Below, piece after piece: positions 7,375-34,643 of a stretch of 64,000 bases of DNA. The position numbers were made by a program, and so were the translations under genes. Location: assembly GCF_054482525.1 (NCBI RefSeq), contig NZ_CM137006.1. One strand, given 5' to 3'. The stretch's first letter is position 1; each line of letters starts with the position of its first letter. The notes under the pieces are model-generated. The model was not told the origin of the DNA and made no database searches. It saw only the letters and a program-made list of their open reading frames with translations.

Positions 7375-8550
7375 ATGTTTGATTTCGACAAAATCATTGA
7401 GCGTCAAAGTGATAAGTGCCGTAAATGGGACCATACCTTTGTTTGCTCGCGTTTCGGTGACGTCCCGGAGTCCTTTATCCCCCTATGGATAGCCGATATG
7501 GATTTCACCTCACCACCTGCGGTGATTGACGGTTTCCGGCGCATCGTGGAGCACGGCACCTTTGGTTATACCTGGTGCTTTGACGAATTCTACGACGCGG
7601 TCATTGCCTTCCAGCGCAAACGTCATCAGGTTGAGGTGGAAAAGTCGTGGATCACGTTGACCTACGGCACCGTATCCACGCTGCACTACACGGTTCAGGC
7701 ATTCTGCAAACCGGGTGACAGCGTGATGATGAACACGCCGGTCTACGATCCTTTTGCGATGGCGGCACAGCGCCAGGGCGTGCAGGTACTGGCTAACCCG
7801 CTGCGCGTGGAGGAAAACCGCTATCAGCTTGATTTTAATCTGATAGAAGAACAGCTCAAAACCCACCGTCCAACGCTGTGGTTCTTCTGCTCGCCACATA
7901 ACCCGTCCGGCAGGATCTGGCGCGAGGAAGAAATACGCCAGGTGTCCGATCTCTGTCAACGCTACGGCACGATTCTGGTGGTCGATGAGGTTCACGCTGA
8001 ACACATTCTGGATGGCAAATTCGCCAGTTGTCTCACCTCTGGCTGTGCCGCCCAGGACAACCTGATCGTGCTCACATCGCCCAACAAAGCGTTCAATTTG
8101 GGCGGGCTGAAAACCTCCTACTCCATGATTCCAGACGACTCGCTGCGCCAGCGCTTCCGCCAGCAGCTCGAGAAGAACTCCATTACCTCGCCCAATTTGT
8201 TCGGGGTATGGGGAATCATTCTGGCCTATCAACACGGTCTGCCCTGGCTCGACGCGCTGAACGGTTATCTGCAAGGCAACGCCCGGTATCTGGCGGATGC
8301 CCTCCAGACCCACTTCCCGGCGTGGAAGATGATGAACCCGGAATCGTCGTATCTGGCGTGGATAGACGTAAGCGCGGATGAGCGTAGCGCAACGCAGCTA
8401 ACCCAACATTTCGCACGGCAGGCAGGCGTGGTCATAGAAGACGGCAGCCACTATGTACAAAACGGCGAAAACTACCTGCGGATTAATTTTGGCACCCAGC
8501 GCTACTGGCTGGAGCAGTCCATTAACCGAATGCTGAAAAATGACAAATAA
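7375..8550 (+). CDS. PLP-dependent C-S lyase / aminotransferase class I-II (MalY/PatB-like)
   Basis: MFDFDKIIERQ... N-terminus and overall similarity to MalY; immediately downstream of the PTS gene as in the malX-malY arrangement. Confidence 0.8.
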   Translation: MFDFDKIIERQSDKCRKWDHTFVCSRFGDVPESFIPLWIADMDFTSPPAVIDGFRRIVEHGTFGYTWCFDEFYDAVIAFQRKRHQVEVEKSWITLTYGTVSTLHYTVQAFCKPGDSVMMNTPVYDPFAMAAQRQGVQVLANPLRVEENRYQLDFNLIEEQLKTHRPTLWFFCSPHNPSGRIWREEEIRQVSDLCQRYGTILVVDEVHAEHILDGKFASCLTSGCAAQDNLIVLTSPNKAFNLGGLKTSYSMIPDDSLRQRFRQQLEKNSITSPNLFGVWGIILAYQHGLPWLDALNGYLQGNARYLADALQTHFPAWKMMNPESSYLAWIDVSADERSATQLTQHFARQAGVVIEDGSHYVQNGENYLRINFGTQRYWLEQSINRMLKNDK

Positions 8551-8563
8551 GGATCTTACCCCG

Positions 8564-10453
8564 ATGAAGAAAGTGCTCACTCTCTCACTGCTGGCTCTCT
8601 GCGTTTCTCATGGTGCAGCGGCAGCAAACTACGCGCTCAATAACGACAATATTGCCCTCTTGTTTGATGATACAAACTCAACGGTCGTGGTGAAGGACAA
8701 CAAGGCTAACCATCCGCTCACGCCGCAGGAGTTGTTCTTTCTGACGCTGCCGGATGAGAGTAAAATCCACACCGCGGATTTCAAAATCAAGCACGTCGAA
8801 AAGCAGGATAACGCGATTGTCATCGACTTTACGCACCCGGATTTTAACGTCACGGTGAAGCTGAACCTGGTGAAGGGAAAATACGCCAACATCGGCTACA
8901 CCATTGCCGCCGTGGGGCAGCCGCGCGACGTCGCTAAAATCACCTTCTTCCCGACCCAAAAACAGTCTCAGGCCCCTTACGTAGACGGCGCAATCAATAG
9001 CTCTCCGATCGTTGCGGACTCGTTCTTTATCCTGCCGGATAAACCGATCGTGAATACCTACGCCTATGAAGCCACCACCAATCTCAACGTAGAGCTGAAA
9101 ACGCCGATTCAGCCAGAGGCGCCGGTCAGCTTTACTACCTGGTTCGGCACTTTCCCGGAAACCAGCCAGCTGCGCCGCAGCGTGAACCAGTTTATTAATG
9201 ACGTACGTCCACGCCCATACAAGCCTTATCTGCACTACAACAGCTGGATGGATATCGGCTTTTTCACTCCCTACACTGAACAGGATGTGCTGGGGCGTAT
9301 GGACGAGTGGAACAAGGAGTTCATTACGGGCCGCGGCGTGGCGCTGGACGCCTTCCTGCTGGATGATGGCTGGGACGATCTGACCGGACGCTGGCTATTT
9401 GGCACGGCATTCAGAAACGGTTTTAGCAAAGTACGGGAGAAAGCCGACAGCCTGCACAGCTCCGTTGGGCTATGGCTTTCACCGTGGGGTGGCTACAACA
9501 AACCGCGCGACGTTCGCGTTTCGCATGCAAAAGAGTATGGGTTCGAAACCGTGGACGGCAAACTGGCGCTGTCGGGAGCGAACTACTTTAAAAACTTCAA
9601 TGAGCGGATCATCAAGCTTATCAAAAACGAGCACATCACCTCATTTAAACTCGACGGGATGGGTAACGCCAGTTCGCATATCAAAGGCAGCTCGTTCGCC
9701 TCAGATTTCGATGCATCAATCGCCCTGCTGCACAATATGCGCAGCGCAACCCCGAATCTGTTTATCAACCTGACCACCGGCACCGACGCCAGCCCGTCCT
9801 GGCTGTTCTACGCTGATTCTATCTGGCGTCAGGGAGATGACATTAACCTGTATGGTTCCGGTACGCCGGTGCAGCAGTGGATGACCTACCGCGATGCCGA
9901 GACGTACCGCTCCATTGTCCGTAAAGGCCCTCTGTTCCCGCTGAACTCGCTGATGTACCACGGGATAGTCAGCGCCGAGAATGCCTATTACGGGTTAGAG
10001 AAGGTGCAAACGGACAGCGACTTTGCCGATCAGGTCTGGAGCTACTTCGCGACCGGCACCCAGCTGCAGGAGCTGTATATTACCCCGTCCATGCTGAACA
10101 AGGTGAAGTGGGATACGCTGGCGAAGGCTGCAAAATGGTCGAAGGAAAATGCCAGCGTGCTGGTTGATACCCACTGGATTGGCGGCGACCCAACGGCGCT
10201 TGCCGTGTACGGCTGGGCATCCTGGAGCAAAGACAAAGCCATTCTCGGTTTGCGCAACCCATCGGATAAGCCACAGGCCTACTATCTGGATTTGGCTAAG
10301 GATTTCGAAATACCGACAGGAGACGTGGCGCAGTTTAGTCTGAAAGCGGTATACGGCAGCAATAAAACCGTGCCCGTTGAGTATAAAAACGCGACGGTGA
10401 TTACGTTGCAGCCGCTGGAAACGCTGGTGTTTGAGGCGGTGCCCGTTAACTAA
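8564..10453 (+). CDS. secreted glycoside hydrolase-like protein (alpha-galactosidase-like DDGW motif)
   Basis: Signal peptide MKKVLTLSLLALCVSHGAAAA; LLDDGWDD motif reminiscent of GH27/36-type hydrolases; start alternatively at 8540. Confidence 0.5.
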   Translation: MKKVLTLSLLALCVSHGAAAANYALNNDNIALLFDDTNSTVVVKDNKANHPLTPQELFFLTLPDESKIHTADFKIKHVEKQDNAIVIDFTHPDFNVTVKLNLVKGKYANIGYTIAAVGQPRDVAKITFFPTQKQSQAPYVDGAINSSPIVADSFFILPDKPIVNTYAYEATTNLNVELKTPIQPEAPVSFTTWFGTFPETSQLRRSVNQFINDVRPRPYKPYLHYNSWMDIGFFTPYTEQDVLGRMDEWNKEFITGRGVALDAFLLDDGWDDLTGRWLFGTAFRNGFSKVREKADSLHSSVGLWLSPWGGYNKPRDVRVSHAKEYGFETVDGKLALSGANYFKNFNERIIKLIKNEHITSFKLDGMGNASSHIKGSSFASDFDASIALLHNMRSATPNLFINLTTGTDASPSWLFYADSIWRQGDDINLYGSGTPVQQWMTYRDAETYRSIVRKGPLFPLNSLMYHGIVSAENAYYGLEKVQTDSDFADQVWSYFATGTQLQELYITPSMLNKVKWDTLAKAAKWSKENASVLVDTHWIGGDPTALAVYGWASWSKDKAILGLRNPSDKPQAYYLDLAKDFEIPTGDVAQFSLKAVYGSNKTVPVEYKNATVITLQPLETLVFEAVPVN

Positions 10454-10520
10454 ACGCTTGTCCCAATGAGCAGACCGGGTAAGGCGCAAGCGCCACCCGG
10501 CAAAACCGGCAGCAGGGGCT

Positions 10521-10830
10521 TATTCCCCCTGCTGTTCCAGCGCATACTTATACAACGCATTCTTCTTCACTCCGTGGATTTCTGCCGCCAACGCCGCCGC
10601 TTGCTTCAACGGCAGCTCAGCCTACAACAGCGCCAGCGTACGCAGCGCATCGGCGGGCAGTTCGTCATCCTGGGCTTTATGGCCTTCAATAATCAGCACC
10701 ATCTCGCCTTTGCGAGGGTTTTCATCTTCTTTGATCCACGCCAGCAGTTCGCCGACCGACGTGCCGTGGATGGTTCCCAGGCGGGTGTTCATCACATAAC
10801 GGTATAGGGCATCATTCAGCGGAGCCATTA
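10521..10830 (-). pseudogene. rsmI (yraL)-like 16S rRNA methyltransferase 3' remnant with in-frame amber codon
   Basis: Minus-strand translation gives ...[86 protein letters not shown]; matches the RsmI C-terminus with CAG to TAG at 10622-10624; the 5' two-thirds is missing. Confidence 0.6.
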
Positions 10831-10932
10831 ACAGGCAGCACGCGTCAACCCAGTTGGAGAGTAACGCCGTCATTGGGTTATTTCTTTCCATAAAAATACG
10901 CAAACATGCCCCATACCTCCTGTTCCAACAGC

Positions 10933-12369
10933 TCAACCTTTCTTAATCATTGCCGAAATTGCGCCACAGTCATGAAACTTATCAAAACCAGTGGTGCCTT
11001 TGATATATTCAGTAACCAGAGTACCAATAATCTTAACCGTTTCTTTGTTCGTTGTGATAAAGCCCAGTGGCATCGTTACAGGCAATATTTCGGGTTGAGA
11101 AATATGATAGATAACGGCAGATAACTCATCCTCAAGATGAAGGATCTCAACATTACCATCTAACAGCCCCTCAACTAGTCCTTTAGCGTACTCATGGAAT
11201 TGCCCAAGTTCATACTTCCACTGTCTGGCAACCCGAGCATCAGCTGCATCCCGGACAGGTACGTACAGCACCGGTTTATACAGCTGCTTATCCTTCGTAG
11301 CCGACTTGCTAAGAAAATTGCTCAGGCTTGAGATAAATCGAATGCTTTTTGACCAGTAGGGATCTGATGGTGCCACCCAGATGAACGGGCTACCTCCATA
11401 ATCAGTTTTATCTCTGATACGCTGATTGAGCGCTGGTGCCAGAGCTTTCTGCAGCTTTTCCCAGTTGTTTTTAGAATAAACCGGACCTAAAAAAGTCGTT
11501 CTGCCTGAGGACGAGTATTCTTCCAGTGCTTGCATATCTTTGATAAACAACGGATTAAGTCGATTCGTTTTAGAGTCAAACAGCTTAAGCGTAAGGTCAT
11601 CGTTAATGGATTGCATGGCCTTAAAAATACTCATGGTATTGTTATGCCGTGATAACCTGGCTATCTCAACAGCCATTAACTCATGAACACATTCCGAACT
11701 ATTTAACTGTTCATAGTCTTCACGCTCGACAGCCTTACCATCGCTATCCATTTTAAATTCCGTTGTTAAACGGAGTGGTATTTGCCGCAGCTTATTAACA
11801 GAATTAACGGTATAGATAGAAGGTTGTTCTTTTCCGACCTGAACCTGCAGGTGAGACAGGTAACCTTTATCCAGGATTTGATTAAACTGGTATTGAAAGT
11901 GCTTCTCAACCAGTTTCTCACTTTGAGAAATGTTGTTGTCATCAACCTTTAATGTTACCCCTCCCCTCCAGTGGTCCTGAAAAGCCTGGTTGCTGAAGCA
12001 ACTAAATGTGGCTAAATCAAAGGATAAGGTACAGCCACTGTCCTGAATAGTTGAAAGATGCGGTATCTCGCCAACCTCTGAAAAATAGCCATTTGATTTG
12101 TCTGTTAAGGCCAGTCTGCCGTCTGAGGAGAGCGTCAATTCGCCACGCTGCACAAGATCGGAAATCGCCTCCTCTGTCTCACGGTGGGTCAGGCCGAAAT
12201 AGGTTGCTATTTGTGCTTTGCTCATCGAAGCTACATGAACAAGTCTCAGCACAAACTCCCGGATAAATGGCAGCCCCTTCTGGGAAACATAGGAAAACTG
12301 AATGTTAAACCTCTGTGCTGGCAGCAGGAAGTCAACCTCATGATAGGTAACTTTGTTATCAGATATCAT
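10933..12369 (-). CDS. hypothetical protein (478 aa), translationally coupled to the upstream helicase-domain gene
   Basis: ATG at 12369-12367 overlaps the TGA (12368-12366) of the upstream gene (ATGA overlap); no domain recognised by me. Confidence 0.7.
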
Positions 12370-15300
12370 TTCTTTTTGCCTCCCTGCTGAGCAGAGAGGA
12401 ACCTGTATCCAGCTTCCTGACCTCGCTCAGCCATATAACTTACAACGTAGCCTAATGGCAATTCTTTATTGTTTCCCTTCCAGATATCGGCATTACCCAC
12501 AATCAACAGTCGATCCATTGCGCGTGACATCGCGACATTTATACGGTTTGGAACGCGTAAGAAACCTGGGCTATGCTGCTTATCCGAACGCGTCAGTGAC
12601 AGGATAATGATCCGATTTTCCTTTCCCTGATAACTGTCAACAGTGTCAATTTTAACAATGTCCTTAAATCCCTCGCTCCAGATTTCCTGATTGAATTTCT
12701 GACGGAGTAACCGCTTTTGTTCGGCATACATACATATCACGCCGATAGCGGCTTCATCTTTGCTAACAAGTTTTGAAAGCTTAGCGACAAATTCTTCATT
12801 CTCTGACACCTGTTTAAGAACAGAAATAATCTCGTCAGCTTCACATCGGTTGTAAATGCTTGTTCCGCGATCTTCAAGATGATGTGCTCGGTGGCCCTGA
12901 TTAGCAGTATCAAGCCAGGTTACAACGCTACGTAACGCTTCCGGAGCTTGCTGATAGACATCCGGAATTGCCCGTACTCCATTCAGAAGCTTCCCGTCAT
13001 AAAACGTCTTCGATACGAGATTACCAATCGGTGGAGCCATACGATACTGGGTCATCAAAGCTGCACTCGTCTGCGCACCATAAGCAGAGTTGAAGGCTCG
13101 GGCAAAGTCACTTCGTAATACCTCGTCAATTTCAGTGCGGGAGTTATTGATACCCAGCTTCCTCGCTAATGCCGCCTTGTGGGCATCTGAGTACAATGGA
13201 GGAAGCTGCATGTGGTCACCCACCAACAGGACACGCCGGGCTGACTGCATTGCAATGGCCAGCTCACTTGAAATCGAGCGCGCCGCCTCATCAATAATCA
13301 CCCAGTCATAGATATTCTCCTGAATGCCAATGTGCCCTTGTCCAATACCAACGCATGTGCCAGCCACTAACTGCCTGGAGCGCGAATAAAACTCGTCCAG
13401 GTTCACTCGCTCTCCCGACATAGCATCCTGCATATCACGGGATATTTTAGCTAATGCTTTTACTCGTCTTGCCTCATCAGGTCTGACACCATACTCTGTA
13501 CATAGCTTGGAAATCAGAATGTCTTTTGCTGCTGAGACCTTCACGCCATTGTCCAAGTTAATCCCATACTCCTGACTCAGCTTAGAGCGGATGGAAAAAT
13601 CGAGTTCGACTGCAATATCTTTCAGTTCATTGCTCTCATTTGAATCCGTTAAATTGTTAACCTGATAGAGCAATTTCTCAAGGTGATCGATTTGTCTGAA
13701 CAAATTGAGCTCTGCAAGAACAACACCCGAAATAAATCCCGGCTCAAGACCAATAGCTTCACTCAATGCTTCAACACGGTACTTAATTTCAGCATTGAAG
13801 AGTTCGCGCTTCTCTGTTGTGATTGCGTGTGAGTACACATCTTTTAAGCCAGGGGAAACGGCTCCCTCTCGGTTGCTGAACCTGACAACGTCCAACTCTG
13901 TACCAAGCCGGGAACAATGCTTTCTGATACGCTCGGCCGCTGTATTCACAGCCTCGTGTGACTGGCTGACCAGTAAAATGCGTTTGGTATTCTGTTTCTC
14001 GATCAGGTAGTGAACAAAGGCCGCGATGAACTCGGTTTTACCGGTCCCCGGTGGCCCCTGAAGCAGGGAGAGAGGGCCATTATTGACCAGTTTGTTAAAC
14101 GCCTTTCTTTGCTGTTCATTCAGACTGATCTTGTTTCCGTGCTGATCTTCACGGTCGTATCTGGCAAAATCGGTATCGCTGAGAGTGATACCATAATTTT
14201 GAGCCGCCTGTTTGCAGGATGGATCGAACAAGTCAATTAAGTCAGGCAGCACACTTTCTCGATCTAGGAGACGTTCCAGTGCGCGTTTACGTTTCTGATA
14301 AGATGCACGAGTCGGCCTTGTACGGAAGAAGACAATATCAGAATCCTTCAGCTTGAAGGCTGCTGAACTAACTTTGACAAGACGAATCTCTTTGAGCTCT
14401 GACTTCTTAAGTGACACTTCACCAATAAATCGCTCAACACCTTCCTGATCGACCTGTAAGGCTTCGACTTCATCACTACTTCTGAAAGCACCGAGTGGAT
14501 CAACATCAGCAGAGTAAGGGAGAAGAAGCTCTCCATGAGCATCTGCAACCGGGACCACTTCACCGCTGATTTCAATGTTTGGATAAGATTCTGTTTCAGT
14601 ATCCAGAATGGCGCGCCACAGTTTCACTGTTGGGATTTCCAGCACTTCTCTTAAAGAAGGTTCAAGCGTCTGCTTATCAAGCCTTGCAAAGGTATCTTTT
14701 AGCTGAAGCGTAAGTGGCTCTTGTACCTGAACATCTTCAGTTGCGGCAATCAACTCGATTGCCCGCGCAAAAGATTCTTCTTCATTAAGCAATACTGTCA
14801 ACGCCGACAGATCCTGCGGACTGCCGGGAATAATCTTGATGCCAGTATCAATTTCGAACTGGCTTTCATCAATATCTTGCTTACGAATTGTGACGCGAGC
14901 CCGTGGCCTGAAGCCATGAACCAGCGTCTTCTGATCTTTGTTGAACACCGCAGTAAAACTGCCACCAATCCCAGAGAAAGTCACATTTACTTCAGCTGGC
15001 GCTTTAGGATTTGACTTAACTTTGACATACAGATGCCCGTTATCAGGCAGAATAGAGATTATTTCATCGGCATTTCCTGCAGTAATCTCTATCAGGTCTT
15101 GTTCTGGCACCAGGTCATTACTATCTATCGCTTTTTTAAAGCGGCCTAAATCCTTAAACCCAAAAACCGGATCTTCCAGCTCTGCTCGGATAGCATTCGC
15201 GATTGTCGGATAAATGTCTGATTCCAGCCCCCATGACATGCCTAGCAACTCGCAGGACATCTTCATCACTGCATAGTTGTCACGTTCAAAAGAAGTACAA

Positions 15301-15682
15301 TTATCAATGTATTCAGGGCTGTAACTGTGATTTTTAGGTTCGTCACCGGACGGTGAAAAATCGGGGATATCGATGAGAAAAAGCAAACGGCTCTGTGTCT
15401 CAAATATCACATTGCCAGGGTGGATGTCCCCGTGAGAAACACCCAGACCATGTAAGTGCTCAACGGCGGCGACAAACTTACCAATGAGGTCGATTTTTTC
15501 ATCATCGGGGACCGCTATTTTATCCCAGGTTTCTCCCTGTACCTGATCCGTGACCATATATAGGCTTGATGATTTTGATGCGATACCGAATTCACGAATT
15601 TGAGGTAGATACGTTGTTTTAACTGAAGAAAGCCGCTCAACCTGCTTTAAAAACTTCAGAACCTGGAAATTAATTGACGGAT
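12366..15682 (-). CDS. 3' portion of IS629-split gene: protein-kinase-like C-lobe plus SF1 Upf1-like helicase
   Basis: ORF track 12366..15557 (1063 aa); the frame stays open upstream to the IS629 boundary at 15682 (my manual translation). Motifs HGDIHPGNVIF and IDIPDF (kinase-like), GPPGTGKT (Walker A), VIIDEAA (Walker B), DTVDSYQGKE and VAMSRAMDRLLIVG (SF1 helicase). Confidence 0.75.
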
Positions 15683-15736
15683 TGAACCGCCCCGGGAATC
15701 CTGGAGACTAAACTCCCTGAGAAAGAGGTAAACAGG

Positions 15737-16063
15737 ATGACTAAAAATACTCGTTTTTCCCCCGAAGTCCGTCAGAGGGCGATTCGTATGGTTCTGGAAA
15801 GTCAGGGCGAATATGACTCACAGTGGGCGGCAATTTGTTCCATTGCCCCAAAGATTGGCTGTACACCGGAGACTCTGCGTGTCTGGGTACGCCAGCATGA
15901 GCGGGATACCGGAGGCGGTGATGGCGGGCTCACCACCGCTGAACGTCAGCGTCTGAAAGAGCTGGAACGTGAAAATCGTGAACTGCGCCGCAGTAACGAT
16001 ATCCTTCGCCAGGCTTCCGCTTATTTTGCGAAGGCGGAGTTCGACCGCCTCTGGAAAAAATGA
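15737..16063 (+). CDS. IS629 transposase OrfA
   Basis: 108-aa [25 protein letters not shown]... with HTH and leucine-zipper-like C-terminus; IS3-family OrfA. Confidence 0.85.
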
Positions 16064-16950
16064 TGCCACTGCTGGATAAGCTGCGTGAGCAGTACGGGGT
16101 CGGACCGCTATGCAGCGAACTGCATATTGCCCCGTCAACGTATTACCACTGTCAGCAACAGCGACATCATCCGGATAAACGCAGTGCCCGTGCGCAGCGC
16201 GATGACTGGCTGAAGAAAGAGATACAGCGCGTATACGATGAAAATCATCAGGTGTACGGTGTGCGTAAAGTCTGGCGTCAGTTGTTACGGGAAGGTATCA
16301 GAGTGGCCAGATGCACTGTGGCACGTCTCATGGCGGTTATGGGACTTGCCGGTGTTCTCCGGGGTAAAAAGGTCCGTACGACCATCAGCCGGAAAGCCGT
16401 TGCCGCAGGCGACCGCGTAAACCGTCAGTTCGTGGCAGAACGACCTGACCAGCTGTGGGTGGCTGATTTTACTTACGTCAGCACATGGCGGGGCTTCGTC
16501 TATGTGGCGTTCATCATTGATGTGTTTGCCGGATACATCGTGGGGTGGCGGGTCTCATCGTCTATGGAAACGACATTCGTGCTGGATGCTCTGGAGCAGG
16601 CGTTATGGGCCCGTCAACCGTCCGGCACAGTCCATCACAGTGATAAAGGTTCTCAGTATGTATCGCTGGCCTACACACAGCGGCTTAAGGAAGCCGGATT
16701 ACTGGCATCAACAGGAAGTACTGGTGACTCGTATGACAACGCGATGGCGGAGAGCATCAATGGCCTTTACAAAGCGGAGGTAATACACCGTAAGAGCTGG
16801 AAAAACCGGACAGAAGTGGAGCTGGCCACACTCACGTGGGTGGACTGGTATAACAATCGACGATTGCTGGAAAGGCTGGGCCATATCCCACCGGCAGAAG
16901 CAGAAAAAGCTTATTATGCTTCCATCGGAAACGATGATCTGGCAGCCTGA
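16060..16950 (+). CDS. IS629 transposase OrfB (DDE integrase domain)
   Basis: 296-aa ORF overlapping orfA; DDE transposase core; normally expressed as an OrfAB fusion by frameshifting. Confidence 0.85.
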
Positions 16951-16992
16951 GTTCACAGATAAAACACTCTCCAGGAAACCCGGGGCGGTTCA

Positions 16993-18649
16993 GATCGTAT
17001 CCCTGTCCCCCAACATTCAGCCAAGCCTTCACGAGCCTTCCTTTCGAGATATAGACTTCTTTGTCGACTGTTTCGACCTGAAACTGAAAGCCATCGTCTT
17101 CCGGGTATTGACGAGCGTGATTGATAGCATGTCGGTAAGGGTCAAGCTCAGTATCATCAAATGTTGGAATATCCTTGCCAGCAGGTTCGGCTTGTTTCAG
17201 GGCATCAAAGAATTCTGTTGCAGAAGTGAATTTTGCGGCAACGGCATCCCGTAATACAGATGAATACCAGTGCTGGCTGTTTAGCATGTTGTCCTGTACT
17301 TTCTCCAGACTCTTTGGCGACATGCGCATACCGCTAAATAAGTGCCAGGCGACAAGGCCCAGAGTATGAACATCTTGCTGAAAAGGCGTAAGCTCGCCCT
17401 TATCAAGCATGTCTTTTACGTGGACTGCACCTACGGATAAAAGCTTACGGTAATCGCCAACCGTTCCGGCTGGCTGGTGGTAAGCCGAAATAAAGTTCGA
17501 AAGAGCAACTTCTTTTGAAGGTGAAATCCACAGACTGTGATCGGCGACATCCCTGTGCGCAATTTTCATCTCATGGAGATCACTAAACTTTGCAATGAGC
17601 AGTTTCACCACATTCAAGCGGTCCATATCAGAAAAGTTCTTACCATATTTTCCGATAAACTCATTAAACCGGACATGACCCGGCGGAACTTCGTAGACTT
17701 CGCTATACTCGGCCGTCACCTCGTCTTTCTGAAAACTCGTCAAAGACCTGAGACAGTGGTTATACAGGTCACGATTCTGGTGATTGATGTGCTGTAACAC
17801 TTCGCGCTCACGTGAAACAATCTGAGCTCGTCCTTCCGGGGTATTCGCTTTCGTTCCCGTTATATTTCTAAAATTCCATACTCTGAGTAGCGCTTCGCTG
17901 TTCGTTGATATCTCAGATTTTGCCAGATATTCTCGATACACCTTTTTAGGATGTTCGAAAATCATATCATTAGCTTCATAGCCATTAACTCTCAAGGCTT
18001 TTGGTGCCGTCTGAGGCCCTAGGAACAAATCATCGAAAAGATGGAAATCCTTGTTAAGAACCTTGGTAGCTGGGTGCGGTTTGAAATAGTTATTGAAGCT
18101 CCCGCGATCGGCAAACTTCAGGAAATCTTTTAACGAGATCGTATGGCGCCGTTGTTCCTCCGGCAGCGCGCTGAAATCTGCATTGCCGGTCATCACAACA
18201 AAAAAATGAACAATCGGGATATAGCCTTTGTTCGTAAAACGGTCTACCAGACGCTTGAGTTTTTTGTCCAGCATGAATTTTTTGCTACGAGTCACGCTTA
18301 CTGGCGAGCGCCCCATGTTCTTATCACCTTTAAACCAAGTATCTCCGCGTGCGGTTACAGGCTGATGGTTCCAGTCTTTCAGTTCAACAATGATCACGTT
18401 GCAGTGTGTTACAATAACTAAATCGAATTCCCCCTCTTTTTTTGCCTCAACAAATCGAAAACCTGCATAACCTTTCCAAGGGAACATTTCATTGCCGATA
18501 AAACCATAGCTTTTTAGCTGCTCACTAATTGAACCGCTACGGAAAGGCTTGTCAGGCTTAGATACGTTGACTGAAAAAGCAGCTTTTATTTTCTCGATAG
18601 CCAATACTTCCTGTTCTTGTAAGCCACCATCCCACATTTCTACTTCCAA
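16993..18649 (-). CDS. 5' portion of IS629-split gene: NERD nuclease-related domain plus protein-kinase-like domain
   Basis: TTG start at 18649 preceded by AAGGAG; NERD-like signature EFDLVIVTHCNVIIVELKDW; kinase-like HRD at KIAHRDVADHSLWI and DVHTLGLVAWHLFSG. The annotated ORF runs on into IS629 (to 16832), so its last about 50 codons are IS-derived. Confidence 0.75.
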
Positions 18650-19311
18650 CGGTGTTCTCCTTAAATTTCAGTAAAAATAAGGTCATTTATTCTGGTCAAT
18701 ATGGCAGGTTTCGATGTTTATAGTTCTGAATACTATGGTGTTTTACACGTTCATTCTGGTTATTATACGTAGAAAAGAATTTATCGGGCAACGCCGAGAT
18801 GACGCGGCCCCGTTAAACCGTGTAGTGGTAGATGATGAGATCAGATACAGGGATCAACTGACGGTGAGCGCAGTCCCCACATTTTATCCGGAGTTTACCG
18901 CTATTCCCGGCTGCCATTCGTTAGCACAGGCCCGCAAGTACCCTGATTTGCCGCTGGTTTTGCTTTCCCATCGAAGGGCCCATACATCATCACGCCCGCG
19001 AAACAGTCGACAAAATAACGCAACTTTCTCATCCGTGGATAATACGGAAACGCACTGCACAGGACTCTGCGGTTTACGTCACCATTCAATCCCATAAGCT
19101 TCAAGTTATGTTTGCCCTCAGTGCAGCTAATTCATCACTGTCAGATTTATGAACCATATTCGTTACCTGTATCCGATCCACTGAGGCACCACGGCAGAAA
19201 TTCGGGTCCCCTACACTGATGACAAAGCGCCCCGCCCTCTTCTGCCTATTAACTCAAGCACCTCCCAACAACTTACAGAAACTTAATTCTAATACCTAAT
19301 ACAACTGTAAT

Positions 19312-19875
19312 TCAGTTATGTCGTGGTCGGCCCCGGTTGCTTTTTTCGGGAAGCCTGCTACGGCCCAGAATAATACCGTGTTCTTTCTGATCCTGTTTAG
19401 CCAGGTAGCTAAGGGCGTAACGTAAACCGTCTACCGCAGACTTATCACTATAGTGAATCACGTGATCGATACGCACCGGGTATTTGTCTTTAGTACTGCA
19501 CAGGTGAAAATAACCCTCCCCTTCCGTGATCCGACTCCAGATATCTCCCAGTTGCCTGGATATCCGATAAAATTTCTTGTGACGTTGCCCATCCAAGTAG
19601 CCGATAAAATGAATATGAAGTCCCTTGTTTGACGTATATTCCATTACCCAGTAATATCCCGCCAGCATCGTTTGGGTTTCACTAAGTAAGCGGTGCATTT
19701 CAATACACATACTGTGCCTACAGGAATGACCAAAACTGGGCGTGTCTTTCCTGTAGGCAAAATCAATTCTGAAAGGTAACAGTTTAGAAAAACGTTGAAA
19801 CAGACCTTCCATGTGTTCATTCACGTCTTTCAGAATCATGAAGTCCATTTCGTAATTGGGATTAGCATTATACAT
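19312..19875 (-). CDS. island-associated protein (YfjJ-like / inovirus Gp2-type family, by recollection)
   Basis: 187-aa ORF; character of CP4-57-type island backbone proteins; family assignment from memory only. Confidence 0.45.
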   Translation of the reverse strand: MYNANPNYEMDFMILKDVNEHMEGLFQRFSKLLPFRIDFAYRKDTPSFGHSCRHSMCIEMHRLLSETQTMLAGYYWVMEYTSNKGLHIHFIGYLDGQRHKKFYRISRQLGDIWSRITEGEGYFHLCSTKDKYPVRIDHVIHYSDKSAVDGLRYALSYLAKQDQKEHGIILGRSRLPEKSNRGRPRHN

Positions 19876-20695: not shown

Positions 20696-22147
20696 TCAGA
20701 GGTCAAAGTTAGGTGCGACACACAACGTTTTTCCCTCAATAACCGGTACAACTCTGTTTTGTTCATACAGTAAATCCAGTAACCAGTTGATTTTATCCTT
20801 TTTCCGGAAACGGTTCGGACCACGCTGTAAAATGTCATTTTTTTTCATACAGAGGATCCCCTTCTCAATACAATAGCTTTTTATCCAGTTGAAAAGTTCA
20901 AGCTCCTCTGGAATGAGTCGCACAGGTACGGTCAGGGCAGAGTTGTCAAAAGTTAACGGATTAGACAACCGCACATACTCATTACCGTACCATATTGCTA
21001 ATTCTCTCGCCATTTCTGCAGTGTAAGGGGAAATCTCCCCCTCTTCACCGCTCGAATGGTAAATAAGTCCTGCCAATCTTGCCATATACTCTGCATTTTT
21101 AGCAGCATATTCCCGGCAATGTCTTAAAGGCCCCAATCCCCCCAGCTTCGATTCCACATCATTGTAATAATCCGTCCAGATTCTGGCAGCCTGAGGAGAA
21201 AAGTGAAGGCAACGTCGTTCACCACTCATCGCCAGACTTTCATCAATAAGCTCATTGATCCTCTCTTCAAACAAATCCTGATACTGTGATGAATAATTAT
21301 CTCCGGTTATTATCCTTGTCCCCTGCGTTGATGTTGGTTGACACATCAAAAACCTTGCATGATGTCCTGACGTTTTCACAATTTCTTTTTTTCGCGTACA
21401 AAAACCTTTGTGGTAAACATCAGGCTGAATCATCACCGATATCGTCAGTCTTGGCTCCTTCAAATTAATTCCGGGAGATGATTTCCTGTCGATGAAAAGA
21501 GAACCTCCATCCCACAAAGTGTTAATAATTCCCAGTTTACTCATGGCCCGGCTGTCAAAAATTACCCCCCCTTCACTGGATACAAGAGCAAAAGAGCGAT
21601 TGCTATCGGAGTAATATTTTAACATTCCCTCTATCGTTGTCTCATTAAAAATTGTTCGACGTATCTGCGGCGGAACAGGAGGTTTATTCAGATGCGTTTC
21701 AAGCTCTGATTCTGTTGCCTTGTAATCTTTACCGGCACGAATCTCTTTATGAAATTTTGATTCCAGCGCTTTTTGTTTTTGCTCCCATATTTCCTTTTCT
21801 GTACTGTAATTCTCAACCAGTTTCGCGTATTCTTCCGCCAGGGCTTCATCCCTGAGATAAAATGCTTTCATAAACACTTTATCCACGGTCGTTTTCCTTT
21901 CACCGGAATCAGCCAGAATCAGAGAGTAAAGATTAACAGGCCCATGTAAATTTCCAGGTCTGCATACGTCAATCTGATTCTGACAGGCAATTGAGATCGC
22001 TGTTAATGCGGATGTTGCCACCATAGCCAAAGGTGCCTGTGTATTTTTTTGAGTTTCAATTATTGCATTTCTCACCAGCGGTGGTAGTGCATATATCGGA
22101 TAAGGATTTTCTGGTGCAAGTAAGCACATAAAAGCCTCTCTTTTCAT
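20696..22147 (-). CDS. DUF3987-type (YfjI-like) island protein
   Basis: 483-aa ORF; resembles the large P-loop-less YfjI/DUF3987 proteins found beside AlpA in P4/CP4-57-like islands. Confidence 0.55.
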   Translation of the reverse strand: MKREAFMCLLAPENPYPIYALPPLVRNAIIETQKNTQAPLAMVATSALTAISIACQNQIDVCRPGNLHGPVNLYSLILADSGERKTTVDKVFMKAFYLRDEALAEEYAKLVENYSTEKEIWEQKQKALESKFHKEIRAGKDYKATESELETHLNKPPVPPQIRRTIFNETTIEGMLKYYSDSNRSFALVSSEGGVIFDSRAMSKLGIINTLWDGGSLFIDRKSSPGINLKEPRLTISVMIQPDVYHKGFCTRKKEIVKTSGHHARFLMCQPTSTQGTRIITGDNYSSQYQDLFEERINELIDESLAMSGERRCLHFSPQAARIWTDYYNDVESKLGGLGPLRHCREYAAKNAEYMARLAGLIYHSSGEEGEISPYTAEMARELAIWYGNEYVRLSNPLTFDNSALTVPVRLIPEELELFNWIKSYCIEKGILCMKKNDILQRGPNRFRKKDKINWLLDLLYEQNRVVPVIEGKTLCVAPNFDL

Positions 22148-24179: not shown

Positions 24180-25997
24180 ATGTATAATTTTATCACTATA
24201 ATGTATGATGTCTTTTCATGTTTTGGTGTTCTGGCTAAAAACCAGAATAGCCGTGACATCCGAAATATTAAAAATTTTTCCTCACATCAACATTCACTGG
24301 GCGACATGTTTGATGAATTAATAAACATTATTGATAAAGAACAAGTATTGAGTAAAGAACAACGAAAAGTTATATTTAGGAGATATGAAGATCTCTATGT
24401 TAAGCTAATGCACTATTCTGTTTTTACAGACAAAACACATCAAATAATAAAACAAAAATATTTTAATGACATTGTACCAATGATTCTCGCACTCGACATC
24501 AGGAACACATATCGCCCGGATAATGAGATGGCATTTTACTATCATATTCATTCTTTTCTCACTCAGATACCGGATAATGAGGATGATATATATCATGCTG
24601 CAAGGACATATCTGCGAAATTACGTTAAGTTATGTTTATCCGGATACACGCCAGCGAATGCGCATTTCAAAGATATCTTTGATGGCGTATATGAATTCAT
24701 TCGTAATATTCGCAAAAACAGTACACCAGGAAAAACAAAACTTATCGCAACTATCAACACATGCAAAGAAACCTGTAAACATCTGCTTTATTTAAGTAAT
24801 GAAGACAAGGAAAAAATAATTTCTGACTTAGATAAAGTTCAGGTTGCATGTTATTATCTCACTATATTACTGGCTTTCGAAAGACGAACTTCATTAACAA
24901 GCACCCTGGCAACTTTATATAAAATGCTGATAAGCGAAAGAGAAGTTTCAGAATATGAATGCCAGTTATTATATTTAACCAACCCAATAGATGTAATGAA
25001 TATACTGAACAAATACATATATTACTTTCCTAATGAGAACTCACCATTTTATACACTGAAAATTGACAGTGCATTATCGTGGGATGCCATTGACGCAATA
25101 CGAGACTATAGTATTTCTGATATTTATCTTTATCCTGAACAAAAAACAATAAATTGTGTCGTTGAGATTGAAAACATTGTCTTTGGCGGTTACATTTATA
25201 CATTGAACAACGGCGTCACATTACAAAACATAGAAAACTCTTTAAAAGATTCTTCATGCCATTATGTCTTAAATGGCTATACAGAATTTGTTAACTGTTT
25301 GAGACAACTTACTTCAGGAAAGACTGAAAGTGTTCATCGCACCATCAATAAACTGAACTATGAGAAATTACCTTTTGGATTTATCATTGCCGCGTTTGCT
25401 ATACTAAAGATAGCATTTAAAATAAAATTCAGTAAAAATCATGTAAATATCCGAGCATTATTAAATGACATCAATTATTTTATGACTTATCAGGGCGAGT
25501 CCATTAACCTTATTTCACTGGATCACGAATACCCAGAGTCCTGTCTTCAAAATGACACAAACACATATTTATTAGGAAGAGTAATATTTCTGTATAACTC
25601 AATGATTTATAAGTTCATAAACTGTCAGGAACATGAAACCAATAACATTCACTCAGCTATGATAAATAACCTATTACAGGAAGTTGATATAGCCCTTGGT
25701 AAAATAAATGACATTATAGACAGCAGAAACATATCAACCCCCCATGAACTGGCAAATATTCTTACCCGCGAAAAAATACTTACAACACGGGAAAAAAAAG
25801 GAAACCTGATAAGCCTGTTTGATGGATTCACTTTATTCCATTGTGTTGGAATGATAACCTTTCTTATCCATTATCTCAGAACACCTGAAGAAAAAGTTGA
25901 AAATATATTTATGTTATATGGTGCAGATAAAAACAATAAACTACGCAGAAGACTGATTTATGACGCACTAGGAATAATTCAGTCTCAGCAGGAGTGA
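24180..25997 (+). CDS. hypothetical protein (605 aa), strongly AT-rich orphan gene
   Basis: ATG at 24180 preceded by AAAGGAG (24167-24173); no motif recognised; composition far more AT-rich than the backbone. Confidence 0.6.
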   Translation: MYNFITIMYDVFSCFGVLAKNQNSRDIRNIKNFSSHQHSLGDMFDELINIIDKEQVLSKEQRKVIFRRYEDLYVKLMHYSVFTDKTHQIIKQKYFNDIVPMILALDIRNTYRPDNEMAFYYHIHSFLTQIPDNEDDIYHAARTYLRNYVKLCLSGYTPANAHFKDIFDGVYEFIRNIRKNSTPGKTKLIATINTCKETCKHLLYLSNEDKEKIISDLDKVQVACYYLTILLAFERRTSLTSTLATLYKMLISEREVSEYECQLLYLTNPIDVMNILNKYIYYFPNENSPFYTLKIDSALSWDAIDAIRDYSISDIYLYPEQKTINCVVEIENIVFGGYIYTLNNGVTLQNIENSLKDSSCHYVLNGYTEFVNCLRQLTSGKTESVHRTINKLNYEKLPFGFIIAAFAILKIAFKIKFSKNHVNIRALLNDINYFMTYQGESINLISLDHEYPESCLQNDTNTYLLGRVIFLYNSMIYKFINCQEHETNNIHSAMINNLLQEVDIALGKINDIIDSRNISTPHELANILTREKILTTREKKGNLISLFDGFTLFHCVGMITFLIHYLRTPEEKVENIFMLYGADKNNKLRRRLIYDALGIIQSQQE

Positions 25998-26183: not shown

Positions 26184-27386
26184 TTATTTATTCACAATTT
26201 GAGACATCACATAATCCGCCCATGCCTGCATCATCGGTACACGCTGCTCCAGTAGATCAGTACGATGATATGCCGCCTCAACCTTATTTTTCAGCGTATG
26301 AGCGAGCGCCCTTTCCGCCAGATCCCGCGAATACCCCTGTTCGCTACACCAGTCCCTGAATGTTGAGCGAAAACCATGTGCCGTGGCAACTCGCCCCGGA
26401 ATGTCACTGACGGCTTTCTTTTTACGCAGAAAACTTGTCAACACCATATCGGAAAGGATCTGCTGCTTTCTGGGTGAAGGGAACACCAGTTCATCATGCA
26501 GGCCACGTATATTTTCCAGAATGTAAATAGCCTGCCGGGATAAAGGAACACGATGCTGTAGCCTAGCTTTCATTCTTTCTGCAGGTATAGTCCATACCCG
26601 CTTATGAAAATCAATTTCAGCCCAGCGCATTCCCCTGGCTTCGCCCGAGCGAGTTGCTGTAAGTATCACCATTAATAACAGTGCGCGGGTAACATTATAA
26701 GGTTCATCGGTATACACACTGGTCGCCACAAAAAGCGGTAACTGCCTCCAGGGCATTGCGGGTTGGTGTTCATCACGTCCTCTTGTCTGCTGAGGAAGCA
26801 AATGGTCAACCACATCAACAGGATTTGCTACACAAAAACCGTGCGCCCATCCCCACTGCATAACAACATGAATGCGCTGTTTAACCCGGCTTGCCGTTTC
26901 TGACAAGGTTAACCAGACTGGACGCAGTGTTTCTGCCACGTCCGCAGCCGTAATCGAATCCAGCGTTTTTGCTCCCAGTTGAGGAAACGCGTAATTCTCA
27001 AGCGTCGATAACCACTGCCTTACATGCTTTGGATTTTCCCATCCAGGAGACAGTTCTGCATGTACACGCCTGGCTGCATCGGCAAATGTTGGGATAGCGA
27101 CTTTCTCAGATTCAGCCTTTTTAATCTCCAGAGGATCATCACCTGCAGCAAGTTGCTCTCGCATTATCCGGGCAGTACGTGCAGCTTCAGCAATACTGAC
27201 CTCTGGGTAAGTTCCCAATCCAGCATTACGTCTTTTTTGTGTCACCGGACTTACATAACGAAAAACCCATTTCCCCCGCCCCTTTACTGAAGAAGGATGA
27301 AGGGTCAGTCCGGTAATTCCCCCATGGGGCAATGGTTTGTCATCAGGTTTGATATGTCTTGCTTTCGTATCCGTCAATACTGCCAT
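26184..27386 (-). CDS. int: tyrosine site-specific integrase (P4/CP4-57 IntA-like)
   Basis: 400-aa ORF with phage-integrase C-terminal catalytic region (...HGFRSTFRDW...LAHTL...AYHRTDL); N-terminus lies about 160 bp from the island-end direct repeats. Confidence 0.85.
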   Translation of the reverse strand: MAVLTDTKARHIKPDDKPLPHGGITGLTLHPSSVKGRGKWVFRYVSPVTQKRRNAGLGTYPEVSIAEAARTARIMREQLAAGDDPLEIKKAESEKVAIPTFADAARRVHAELSPGWENPKHVRQWLSTLENYAFPQLGAKTLDSITAADVAETLRPVWLTLSETASRVKQRIHVVMQWGWAHGFCVANPVDVVDHLLPQQTRGRDEHQPAMPWRQLPLFVATSVYTDEPYNVTRALLLMVILTATRSGEARGMRWAEIDFHKRVWTIPAERMKARLQHRVPLSRQAIYILENIRGLHDELVFPSPRKQQILSDMVLTSFLRKKKAVSDIPGRVATAHGFRSTFRDWCSEQGYSRDLAERALAHTLKNKVEAAYHRTDLLEQRVPMMQAWADYVMSQIVNK

Positions 27387-28083: not shown

Positions 28084-30360
28084 TTAATGCGTTGCTTCCG
28101 CCTTGTGCTTTTGTGCACTCTGGAATCCGTAAGTCAGCTCATTTTTCTCTTTATCCAGCGCGACGGTGACCTGACCGCCGTCCACCAGCGAACCAAACAG
28201 CAGTTCGTTGGCGAGCGGTTTTTTCAGGTTGTCCTGGATGACACGCGCCATCGGACGTGCGCCCATTGCCCGGTCGTAACCTTTCTCGGCCAGCCAGTTA
28301 CGCGCTTCCTGGCTCACTTCCAGAGAAACACCTTTCTGATCCAACTGAACCTGCAACTCGACGATGAATTTATCCACTACCTGATGGATCACGTCGGTGG
28401 AGAGATGATCGAACCAGATAATGTTGTCGAGACGGTTACGAAACTCCGGCGTAAAGATCTTCTTGATCTCTTCCATCGCATCGGTGCTGTTGTCCTGGTG
28501 GATAAGACCAATCGATTTACGCTCAGTTTCTCGTACCCCAGCGTTGGTGGTCATCACCAATACCACGTTACGGAAGTCCGCTTTGCGTCCGTTGTTATCG
28601 GTCAGCGTACCGTTGTCCATCACCTGCAACAGAATATTGAACACGTCCGGGTGCGCTTTCTCGATTTCGTCCAGCAGCAGCACCGCATGTGGATGCTTGA
28701 TGACCGCATCAGTCAGCAAACCGCCCTGATCAAAACCAACGTATCCCGGAGGCGCACCAATCAGACGGCTGACGGTATGGCGTTCCATATACTCGGACAT
28801 ATCAAAGCGCAGAAGCTCAATGCCCAAAGCTTTCGAAAGCTGTACCGTCACCTCTGTTTTCCCGACCCCGGTAGGGCCTGCAAACAGGAACGAACCGACC
28901 GGTTTATGTTCGTGACCTAAACCTGCACGCGCCATCTTAATGGCTTCAGTCAGCGCCTCAATGGCTTTATCCTGACCGAAGACCAGCATTTTCAGGCGAT
29001 CGCCGAGGTTTTTCAGGGTATCGCGGTCACTCTGAGAAACACTCTTCTCTGGAATGCGTGCAATACGGGCCACCACGGACTCAATATCCGCCACATTAAC
29101 GGTTTTCTTGCGTTTGCTTACCGGCATCAGGCGTGCGCGAGCGCCCGCTTCGTCGATAACGTCAATGGCTTTATCCGGCAGATGACGATCGTTAATGTAT
29201 TTCACCGCCAGCTCTACCGCTGCACGCACCGCTTTTGCGGTATAACGCACGTCGTGGTGCGCTTCATACTTCGGTTTCAGGCCATTGATGATTTGAACAG
29301 TTTCTTCGATCGACGGTTCAGTAATATCAATTTTCTGGAAGCGACGCGCCAGAGCACGGTCTTTCTCGAAAATGTTGCTGAACTCCTGATAGGTTGTCGA
29401 ACCAATTACGCGAATTTTACCGCTGGAGAGCAGCGGTTTGATCAGGTTAGCCGCATCGACCTGGCCACCAGAGGCTGCACCCGCACCGATAATGGTGTGG
29501 ATCTCATCAATAAACAGGATGCTGTTAGTATCCTGCTCCAGCTGCTTGAGCAACGCTTTAAAACGTTTTTCAAAGTCGCCGCGATATTTAGTGCCCGCTA
29601 ACAGAGAACCGATATCGAGAGAGTAAATCGTACAGTCAGCCATCACTTCCGGCACATCGCCCTGAACAATTCGCCAGGCAAGACCTTCCGCAATCGCGGT
29701 TTTACCGACACCAGATTCCCCCACCAGCAGCGGGTTGTTTTTACGGCGACGGCAGAGAACCTGAATAGCACGCTCCAGCTCCTTCTCACGACCAATCAGT
29801 GGGTCGATTCCGCCCACACGCGCAAGCTGATTCAGGTTCGTCGTGAAATTCTCCATACGTTCCTCCCCACCAGCTTGTTCTTCGCTGTTTGGCTGGCTGC
29901 CAGGATCAGAAGACTGTGTCGGCTCGTCTTTACGCGTGCCATGAGAGATAAAGTTCACCACATCGAGACGGCTGACTTCATGTTTACGCAACAGATATGC
30001 CGCCTGCGACTCCTGTTCGCTAAAGATAGCGACCAGAACGTTTGCACCGGTAACCTCATTGCGACCGGAGGACTGGACATGGAAGACCGCACGTTGCAGT
30101 ACACGCTGAAAACTCAGCGTCGGCTGTGTGTCGCGCTCCTCTTCACTGGCAGGCAGAACGGGTGTGGTTTGTTCAATAAAGGCTTCCAGTTCCTGACGGA
30201 GCGCAACCAAATCCACAGAACACGCTTCCAGCGCCTCCCGGGCAGATGGGTTACTGAGCAGCGCCAGTAACAAGTGCTCGACGGTCATAAACTCATGACG
30301 GTGCTCGCGCGCTCTGGCGAAAGCCATATTTAAACTGAGTTCCAGTTCTTGATTGAGCAT
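28084..30360 (-). CDS. clpA: ATP-dependent Clp protease ATP-binding subunit ClpA
   Basis: ORF 28084..30375; protein begins [35 protein letters not shown]...; two AAA+ modules ([16 protein letters not shown]). Confidence 0.95.
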
Positions 30361-30390
30361 AGGCACCTCCCCCAATTTTTATGCCTGCAT

Positions 30391-31497: not shown

Positions 31498-31785
31498 TTA
31501 CCGCCGCAGTCGTTCCGGCTTCTTCCACTGGTAAGTATTTTTCGCGCTCTCCCTCCGTTGTTGAGAACGGCGACGGTATGCCAGCAACTCAAGGACTCTG
31601 GTTCGTATGTTGCGCATATCCACGCCGTTAAGCTCAATACCATCACGGCGCATCACCTCAGCAACAACACGCGCGTAATTTTCAGCGGTGACTGTATCCG
31701 GCTGCGCGGCCTGTTCGTCAGCCAACTGGCTGATTCCACCAGCACAGCGGATTAATCGCAGTATTTCAGATTCGGTCATTATCAT
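31498..31785 (-). CDS. hypothetical protein (95 aa), packaging-module associated
   Basis: ORF whose start overlaps the small-terminase gene stop (4-bp overlap); function unknown. Confidence 0.45.
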   Translation of the reverse strand: MIMTESEILRLIRCAGGISQLADEQAAQPDTVTAENYARVVAEVMRRDGIELNGVDMRNIRTRVLELLAYRRRSQQRRESAKNTYQWKKPERLRR

Positions 31786-32270
31786 GCCTGTTTTGCGACC
31801 TCATTCACTACGTCATTTTTTACCATCCGGCTGATAATCTGATTACACAAATCGTCAATAATTGACTGCACTCTGTTTACTGCCATCGGTTTAAGCCCGG
31901 CATCACGTGCCAGAATATTGGGGAGTTTTGCCAGTTCCTCGCTTACGATTTCCCCCCATATAGCCATCTCTTTTCGCACATCATCGGCGGGTATGAGTTG
32001 CGCCGTTTCCTGTTCGAACTTGAGGCGTTCACGTTCGGACTGATACCAGGCCTTACGGTCATGTGGCTCCATTTCTTCCAGTGATGCCGGAACGGGAAGA
32101 TCAAGAAAACAGGTCAGAATGTCAGTCACCCGATAGAGTTTCAGCTTGTCATGCCCTCCGGCTGGCTGGATGTTTTTCAGCCTTGCCGCCGCAGTCTGAC
32201 GACATATTCCCGCTATCGCCGCCAGTTGATTAATGTTCAGCATCAGATTTTTCAGTTCTCGATCCATACC
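31782..32270 (-). CDS. phage terminase small subunit-like protein
   Basis: ORF 31782..32354; likely start at MDRELKNLMLNINQLAAIAGICRQTAAARLKN (HTH typical of TerS/Nu1-like proteins). Confidence 0.55.
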   Translation of the reverse strand, partial: GMDRELKNLMLNINQLAAIAGICRQTAAARLKNIQPAGGHDKLKLYRVTDILTCFLDLPVPASLEEMEPHDRKAWYQSERERLKFEQETAQLIPADDVRKEMAIWGEIVSEELAKLPNILARDAGLKPMAVNRVQSIIDDLCNQIISRMVKNDVVNEVAKQA

Positions 32271-32523
32271 CGCTCCAGAATGTTTTAAACATGCATCTTG
32301 CGAACAACTTTCAGAAGAGGTCAAAAAATGCGCTATATGTTGAGCATAAAACAAGCAAAATTAACATGCCAAAAATAAAAATACTTAAAATTCAATACAA
32401 TATGAAGATGATGATGACGAATGAAAATGCAAAAACTAGCCTTTTTCCGCGCCGCTCCCGCCCCGTGGCAGACCACTCCACCGGGAGGACCCGTAAAAAA
32501 GGCGGCTGTCGCCGCCCTTGTTG

Positions 32524-34437: not shown

Positions 34438-34643
34438 TGCTCCCCCCCAGATGCAAAACCATTCTTATCAAGCCACGCGTTAACCGCGTGTCTGACAATC
34501 TGCGCCGCACCTGGTAATGGTTGGTCAGGATGATGATTTATGTGGTCGATCCTGTACTGCTTAAGGCGCATAACGGTCTGCGCATCCAGATGAACGGAAC
34601 CACCTTTTACCTCGCCTGTGTTCAGGTCGTTAATACAATTCAC
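34434..34643 (-). CDS. hypothetical small protein (69 aa)
   Basis: Stop overlaps the capsid-fusion start by 4 bp (translational coupling). Confidence 0.4.
   Translation of the reverse strand: MNCINDLNTGEVKGGSVHLDAQTVMRLKQYRIDHINHHPDQPLPGAAQIVRHAVNAWLDKNGFASGGEQ

Follow-up and report, generated by a model that had tools for sequence, protein, structure and literature searches.

An intact mkoB beside an insertion-interrupted mkoA: identity, predicted fold and possible role of the second component of type I Mokosh

Mokosh is an anti-phage system, the type I form of which consists of two genes, mkoA and mkoB, where mkoA codes for a protein with a Ser/Thr kinase and a COG1112/Upf1-like helicase (Millman et al. 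2022). Two verified type I systems appear in Table S2 of the preprint of that study. Construct SG199, entered as 'Mokosh type I, v' (v for verified) from Escherichia coli SEC470, encodes an MkoA of 1652 amino acids labelled 'Kinase-Helicase' and an MkoB of 478 amino acids labelled 'HTH' (helix-turn-helix); the other system, from enterotoxigenic E. coli (ETEC) H10407, has a 602-residue MkoB labelled 'HTH-PLD', PLD being the phospholipase D fold. The H10407 system has been reported to act by abortive infection, with a single phage protein as the trigger, and in order to evade another type I Mokosh system of E. coli, phage T4 needs both Alt and the glucosylation of its DNA. Type I Mokosh was called incompletely characterised in a 2026 review. 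Here we analyse an open reading frame (ORF) at 10933..12369 on the minus strand of a stretch of 64,000 nucleotides of contig NZ_CM137006.1 (NCBI RefSeq assembly GCF_054482525.1), hereafter the window, and conclude with near certainty that the ORF is mkoB, which takes the second place in an anti-phage operon of type I Mokosh; the subtype is here named after SEC470.

Identity of the ORF and state of its operon

The ORF starts with ATG and encodes 478 amino acids according to the ORF listing of the window, and the gene is intact. Its product was matched by the PADLOC MkoB model PDLC03923 with an expectation (E) value of 1.9e-151, residues 3-472 being aligned to profile positions 4-452 of 454. Over the 399 residues of SEC470 MkoB that are printed in Table S2, to which this comparison was limited, 392 of 399 residues (98%) are identical to the protein of the window. 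The two proteins share the length of 478 amino acids and the PADLOC model, and the partner MkoA is in both cases a protein of 1652 residues starting MWDGGLQEQEV...; they differ in a few MkoB substitutions and in the state of the operon, since the tested SEC470 clone is intact, whereas mkoA of the window is interrupted by an insertion sequence (IS). Neither the gene and its name nor its function as second component is new: the table marks a copy of 98% identity as verified, and others have demonstrated phage resistance with the SEC470 operon, which is nearly identical (Millman et al. 2022). An earlier, sequence-only reading of this DNA had proposed the protein as the probable second component of a kinase-helicase system, and the PADLOC match together with the identity to SEC470 MkoB bears this out; the proposal stands because homologues elsewhere do adjoin the helicase gene.

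A chance or non-coding ORF at this position was ruled out by the ratio of nonsynonymous to synonymous substitution rates (dN/dS) of mkoB, 0.13-0.20 against three enterobacterial orthologues, and by the breadth of the family: in a search of 1.84 billion cluster representatives, 372 matched the MkoB family profile at E<=1e-3.

The mkoB start codon (12369-12367) overlaps the stop codon (TGA, 12368-12366) of the 1063-amino-acid ORF upstream within the four nucleotides ATGA, and the ORF, its coordinates and this overlap are exactly as the sequence-only reading had given them. The minus-strand letters at the mkoA/mkoB junction read ...GGGAGGCAAAAAGAAATGATATCT, and likewise ...CAGCAGGGAGGCAAAAAGAAATGATATCT... 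A Shine-Dalgarno-like GGGAGG, recognised by direct reading at 12379..12384 on the minus strand, lies inside the end of mkoA, 9 nt 5' of the mkoB ATG, and a GGGAGG-type context precedes the mkoB start in enterobacterial orthologues as well.

The pairing of the two genes is strictly conserved. When one genome per species was scanned with MkoB peptide patterns, 29 loci were obtained, and in all those with upstream DNA (28 of 28) mkoA was found by tblastn directly upstream and on the same strand; the identity of MkoA to that of the window drops in step with the identity of MkoB across the surveyed loci. The junction itself varies slightly: among 27 related loci, for some of which the mkoB start codon was inferred, the mkoA stop and the mkoB start overlap by four nucleotides in 11 and are separated by 1-11 nt in 16. 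Even two distant MkoB homologues, P0196 and P0200, which are 18-20% identical to the query, are preceded by a gene for a 1625-1637-amino-acid protein with NERD, Pkinase, AAA_11 and AAA_12 domains, the stop of which overlaps their starts. The sequence-only reading had staked its proposal on such adjacency, and the pairing is kept down to this level of identity. Within E. coli, the 8.5-kb query was covered to at least 80% in 254 of 5426 complete genomes by megablast.

Two relatives depart from the usual architecture. P0196, of 997 amino acids (positions 8001-10994 of locus L032; AlphaFold Database, AFDB, entry A0A7C9G4N5), carries two C-terminal double-stranded RNA (dsRNA)-binding (dsrm) domains; its partner is nonetheless an MkoA of the NERD-kinase-helicase kind, and the pair lies beside a type I restriction-modification locus. 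An AFDB match is likewise named 'DRBM domain-containing'. The AFDB entry A0A2W5JZK8 of Rhodanobacter denitrificans (817 amino acids), named for a DNA2/NAM7 helicase C-terminal domain, aligns with the whole MkoB model at a template-modelling (TM) score of 0.66, and is either a natural fusion of the MkoA C-terminus with MkoB or an artefact of frameshift or annotation at the place where stop and start overlap.

It was demonstrated that mkoA is split in the window. The 1063-amino-acid ORF (12366..15557, minus strand) matches the PADLOC MkoA model PDLC03921 at profile positions 568-1603 of 1607, and a second ORF at 16832..18649 on the same strand matches positions 1-527; mkoA thus adjoins mkoB and has its orientation, but a full-length MkoA is not encoded in the window. 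Comparison by BLAST with the intact locus of E. coli elppa5, which encodes an 'AAA domain-containing protein' of 1652 amino acids (WP_001333439.1) and a 'hypothetical protein' (WP_000622487.1), delimited a 1310-bp insertion sequence of the IS3 family at 15683..16992 on the plus strand. The element contains orfA (15737-16063, 108 amino acids) and orfB (16060-16950, 296 amino acids), which match the NCBIfam model transpos_IS3 (E 7.5e-94), and is bordered by a direct target duplication of 3 bp (15680-15682 and 16993-16995). In size and arrangement of its ORFs it resembles elements of the IS629/IS1203 type. The insertion point in mkoA is at about codon 548; the NERD and first kinase-like region, which remain on the 5' fragment (16993..18637, minus strand), are thereby separated from the second kinase-like segment and Upf1-like superfamily 1 (SF1) helicase on the 3' fragment (12366..15682, minus strand), which runs from about codon 548 to the stop and is collinear with and 100% identical to the intact mkoA of elppa5 up to 15682. 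What the sequence-only reading had called the helicase gene is a remnant of mkoA starting at an internal Met; its TGA overlap with mkoB was correctly described, whereas its status as a whole gene did not hold, as it is the 3' part left by the insertion.

On both sides of the IS the window is 100% identical to the elppa5 locus, the mkoB DNA coding for WP_000622487.1 included, and a search for the junction between IS and mkoA in 5426 complete E. coli genomes found no instance of it. The insertion is therefore strain-specific and presumably recent, the latter because its flanks are identical to the intact locus, and the untouched mkoB suggests the same. Because no full-length MkoA can be made, this Mokosh copy is most likely inactive and the defence is predicted to be lost; the sequence-only reading had appeared to sense that the system is not intact here, and rightly so, since the IS splits mkoA. 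Automatic annotation of defence systems would still report Mokosh, in whole or in part, at this locus in spite of a probably non-functional system, which matters for the prediction of phage susceptibility. As to the expression of the operon, a consensus scan found a sigma-70-like promoter match, TTGCCC-18-TATAAT, at 18762..18791 on the minus strand, some 125 nt before the start codon (ATG) of mkoA; the number of sigma-70-like sites in the region is not above the shuffled expectation, so this candidate promoter is a weak one.

Predicted fold, degenerate motif and possible role of MkoB

The sequence-only reading had seen no familiar motif in the protein, and this was a fair description. Pfam gave no significant match for MkoB (the best were winged helix-turn-helix (wHTH) families at E 0.06-0.33, and PLDc was not among the matches), NCBIfam gave none, and a sequence search of the PDB with a profile of 94 MkoB sequences returned nothing significant, the best being MarR at E 0.2. 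None of the 120 listed MkoB homologues has a precomputed Pfam domain, PLD domains included.

Structure prediction, which had been suggested as a check, gave a confident model. A first AlphaFold2 (AF2) model, based on 30 close homologues, was of low quality at residues 1-34 and 106-233 (predicted local distance difference test, pLDDT, 67) and was replaced by a run on a 94-sequence alignment, with a mean pLDDT of 94.3 and a predicted TM score (pTM) of 0.87. The modelled chain comprises long N-terminal beta-strands and a winged helix, additional long strands that carry a helical insert, a linker that is helical as well, and an alpha/beta domain at the C-terminal end. Both a MarR-like winged helix-turn-helix fold (about residues 35-93; 12091..12267, minus strand) and the alpha/beta fold of PLD proteins (about residues 290-478; 10936..11502, minus strand), the latter with a degenerate HKD motif, were recognised in the model. 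According to the prediction MkoB is a protein with a wHTH and a PLD-like fold, which fits the general 'HTH-PLD' idea of MkoB.

Such a combination could suggest that MkoB is a MarR/TrmB-type transcription factor, a repressor or activator of the mkoAB operon or of other genes, in which the PLD-like domain would serve as a ligand sensor and which would stand outside the effector machinery. TrmBL2 and TrmB indeed match the wHTH and the PLD-like domain in alignments of up to 158 residues, and a homologue is called 'MarR family transcriptional regulator' by one database source. However, the sequence similarity to MarR is insignificant, as given above, and there is no significant membership of a regulator family; mkoB lies downstream of mkoA and is coupled to it in every locus, and a position after the gene of a 1652-residue enzyme is more in keeping with a stoichiometric partner than with an autoregulator of low copy number. 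Furthermore, the same N-terminal module is fused in sister families to a two-HKD PLD nuclease or to dsRNA-binding domains, which points to substrate targeting. We regard the transcription factor as very unlikely.

The catalytic motif is the next point at which possible roles diverge. PLD nucleases require HxK(x)4D(x)6G(S/T)xN, as summarised in a 2025 preprint. The corresponding stretch of the window protein is H422-I-S424-QPEI-L429-PVTMPL-G436-F437-I-T439, where His and Gly stand at the canonical spacing and Lys, Asp, Ser and Asn are gone; H422 was equated with the catalytic His on the grounds of motif spacing and position in the secondary structure. Among 93 full-length representatives of the family the conserved HxK(x)4D(x)6G(S/T)xN of PLD-superfamily (HKD) nucleases such as Nuc, NucT, Zucchini and BfiI was not found: G295, E408 and G436 alone are invariant or nearly so, H422 is conserved in 85% and replaced in 15%, mostly by Tyr (11%), the '+2 Lys' position holds Ser, Lys or Gln, the +7 position is not Asp, the +15 position is Phe and the +17 position Thr or Ser, so that neither the Asp nor the Asn of the HKD motif is conserved.

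The relationship to the second verified system was also considered. The H10407-type MkoB is likewise the second gene after a kinase-helicase MkoA, but its family always has Pfam PLDc_2 (PF13091) and two invariant HKD motifs (H368/K370/N389 and H554/K556/D561/N571), whereas the MkoB of the window has neither. The two families can be aligned over the N-terminal 120-240 residues only: the N-terminus of the window protein matches the H10407-type PADLOC model PDLC03922 weakly (positions 6-243, E 1.2e-13), and hhalign aligned residues 9-128 (E 6e-4, probability 29%). The MkoA proteins have the helicase alone in common. The N-terminal fragment of the window MkoA contains a Pfam NERD domain (residues 57-139, E 4e-7) and a weak Pkinase match, and the NERD residues D72, E85 and K87, of PD-(D/E)xK-like pattern, are invariant in 25 orthologues of the SEC470 subtype. 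No NERD match was obtained in H10407-type MkoA (1153-1215 amino acids), which begin directly with the kinase-like domain. The pattern is reciprocal: in the SEC470 subtype MkoA has NERD and the PLD of MkoB is degenerate, whereas in the H10407 subtype MkoA is without NERD and the PLD of MkoB is catalytic.

The kinase-like parts of the SEC470-subtype MkoA have features of their own. The first segment has an HRD motif at residue 361, a weak Pfam Pkinase match and a PglW/MAD6-like character; the second has 'HGDIHPGN' at about residue 628 with Bud32/LanKC-like matches. Within the first 620 residues, every kinase catalytic-loop residue varies among the 25 sequences, and because the first kinase-like segment is so poorly conserved in these orthologues, it may be a pseudokinase.

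These data bear on the question whether MkoB itself is the nuclease effector, its PLD-fold domain cutting phage nucleic acid by means of His422 while MkoA would only sense and unwind. In the literature type I Mokosh is a helicase with a PLD nuclease, defence being reported to disappear when the PLD active site is mutated, and, besides the canonical placing of H422 and G436, four residues (H422, E400, E408 and Y421) are invariant among relatives at least 55% identical. On the other side stand the loss and family-wide variability of the canonical Lys, Asp and Asn with the replacement of the His, the missing Pfam PLD match in the query and its 120 homologues, an insignificant hhalign alignment to a genuine H10407-type PLD, the label 'HTH' and nothing more that the discoverers gave to SEC470 MkoB, and the conserved alternative nuclease domain, NERD, that is available in the MkoA of this subtype. 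A nuclease role of MkoB appears quite unlikely to us.

A further alternative is that MkoB is a regulatory substrate or inhibitor, which would restrain the NERD or the helicase of MkoA until a phage trigger arrives or the MkoA kinase phosphorylates it; this might be likened to an antitoxin or to the control logic of Hachiman HamA/HamB in reverse. The strict co-inheritance and correlated divergence of the two genes would agree with such a role, and so would the phage-protein switch of the H10407 system. However, the argument is purely inferential, the first kinase-like domain lacks the invariant catalytic-loop residues mentioned above, and restraint by MkoB overlaps with the explanation that we prefer and is not exclusive of it. 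As an account in its own right it is unlikely.

The explanation we prefer is that MkoB is a non-catalytic partner made together with MkoA, the NERD domain of which cuts; we would put this at about an even chance, or slightly under. MkoB would be synthesized together with MkoA through the conserved stop-start junction. Its N-terminal beta-platform and MarR-like winged helix may bind nucleic acid or dock onto MkoA, while the C-terminal PLD-like domain, having lost the HKD set, could be a binding or regulatory module comparable to TrmB or to the FAM83 pseudo-PLD. Cutting would be performed by the strictly conserved PD-(D/E)xK-type NERD domain of MkoA and not by MkoB, and the outcome would be abortive infection. 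The dsRNA-binding domains on the distant MkoB relative support an RNA-related ligand. In the H10407 subtype the roles would differ, as MkoA is without NERD and MkoB would be a genuine two-HKD PLD nuclease.

Several points weigh against this explanation. The PLD-like assignment of MkoB comes from a predicted structure and not from a residue-level superposition, and the C-terminal domain aligned to each H10407-type PLD half with an hhalign probability of at most 7%, which is not significant; for this reason we claim similarity of fold for the C-terminal domains and not homology. H422 is invariant among the closer relatives and keeps the canonical H-to-G spacing to G436, so a non-canonical catalytic site with H422 may exist. 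PLD active-site mutations are stated to abolish Mokosh defence (Millman et al.), but the mutated construct is named neither in the main text of the preprint nor in the legends to its figures, and the statement is therefore not applicable to the SEC470 subtype. Purified type I Mokosh protein was not obtained in a 2025 preprint, and the MkoA-MkoB complex is one that we infer. Finally, the reciprocal NERD/PLD pattern was seen in five loci of the H10407 type, against at least 27 of the SEC470 type.

Taken together, identity, state of the locus and mechanism form an explanation that we hold to be somewhat more probable than its negation. It leads to the tentative idea, for which we judge the chances to fall a little short of even, that the name type I Mokosh may lump two mechanistically different machines: the SEC470 subtype, with a pseudo-PLD adaptor or sensor MkoB and NERD as the killing nuclease, and the H10407 subtype, with a two-HKD PLD MkoB and a nuclease-free MkoA. 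If this is true, it would document the relocation of an effector within one defence family, and the MkoB relatives fused to dsRNA-binding domains would point to double-stranded RNA or an RNA:DNA hybrid as ligand. The contrast between the subtypes offers a cheap and testable hypothesis on which domain is the effector.

The genomic island around the operon

The mkoAB pair belongs to a genomic island of E. coli that has its own tyrosine integrase gene, at 26184-27386 on the minus strand. Since there is no tRNA gene in the window, the attachment site of the island was not identified. Beside the integrase, an ORF of 605 amino acids (24180-25997, plus strand), annotated as 'hypothetical protein' in related E. 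coli genomes, had no match in Pfam, PADLOC or NCBIfam and is uncharacterised island cargo. Upstream of mkoA, in the region 18822-19160 and at 19312-19875 and 20696-22147 (both minus strand), the annotations of related E. coli genomes give a pseudogene fragment of a 'TOTE conflict system archaeo-eukaryotic primase domain' protein, an inovirus-type Gp2 and YfjI/DUF3987; these are typical cargo of integrative elements, and none of them had a PADLOC match. Downstream of mkoB (8540-10453, plus strand, and 10466-10936) there are remnants of a 16S rRNA methyltransferase pseudogene and an ORF of 637 amino acids that is called 'enterotoxin' in related genomes.

Just past the integrase sits an ORF at 28084-30375 on the minus strand, which was considered as a further defence gene and rejected: it is clpA (NCBIfam, 1695 bits), and its PADLOC matches are generic AAA+ ones. 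Beyond clpA (31782-37851, minus strand) there are a fused prohead protease/major capsid gene at 32524-34437 and a P4-family primase gene at 36019-37851, and this region suggests a phage satellite or cryptic prophage.

Comparison with other known systems

Apart from the two verified type I operons, the combination of an Upf1-like SF1 helicase with a module of PLD fold is met in MkoC of type II Mokosh (e.g. E. coli YjhR) and in the eukaryotic piRNA pair of MOV10L1 and Zucchini/PLD6. The PLD module of these systems is a nuclease with the canonical HKD motif, and in MkoC it forms one protein with the helicase; wHTH, kinase and NERD are absent from them. The archaeal regulators TrmB and TrmBL2 and the FAM83 DUF1669 pseudo-PLD, to which the predicted fold of MkoB was compared, have no detectable sequence relationship to it, and MkoB differs from them in its defence-operon context, its long beta-platform and its helical insert.

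With respect to the general plan of the system, the nearest parallels are Hachiman HamAB, Gabija and Nhi (a NERD-helicase), which like the operon described here combine a large SF1 or SF2 NTPase, a nuclease domain and a smaller partner; complex formation is common among such nuclease-NTPase defence pairs, as reported in a 2025 preprint. The SEC470 subtype differs from HamAB, Gabija and Nhi in that NERD is located on the helicase protein itself, and that the small partner, MkoB, is apparently non-catalytic.
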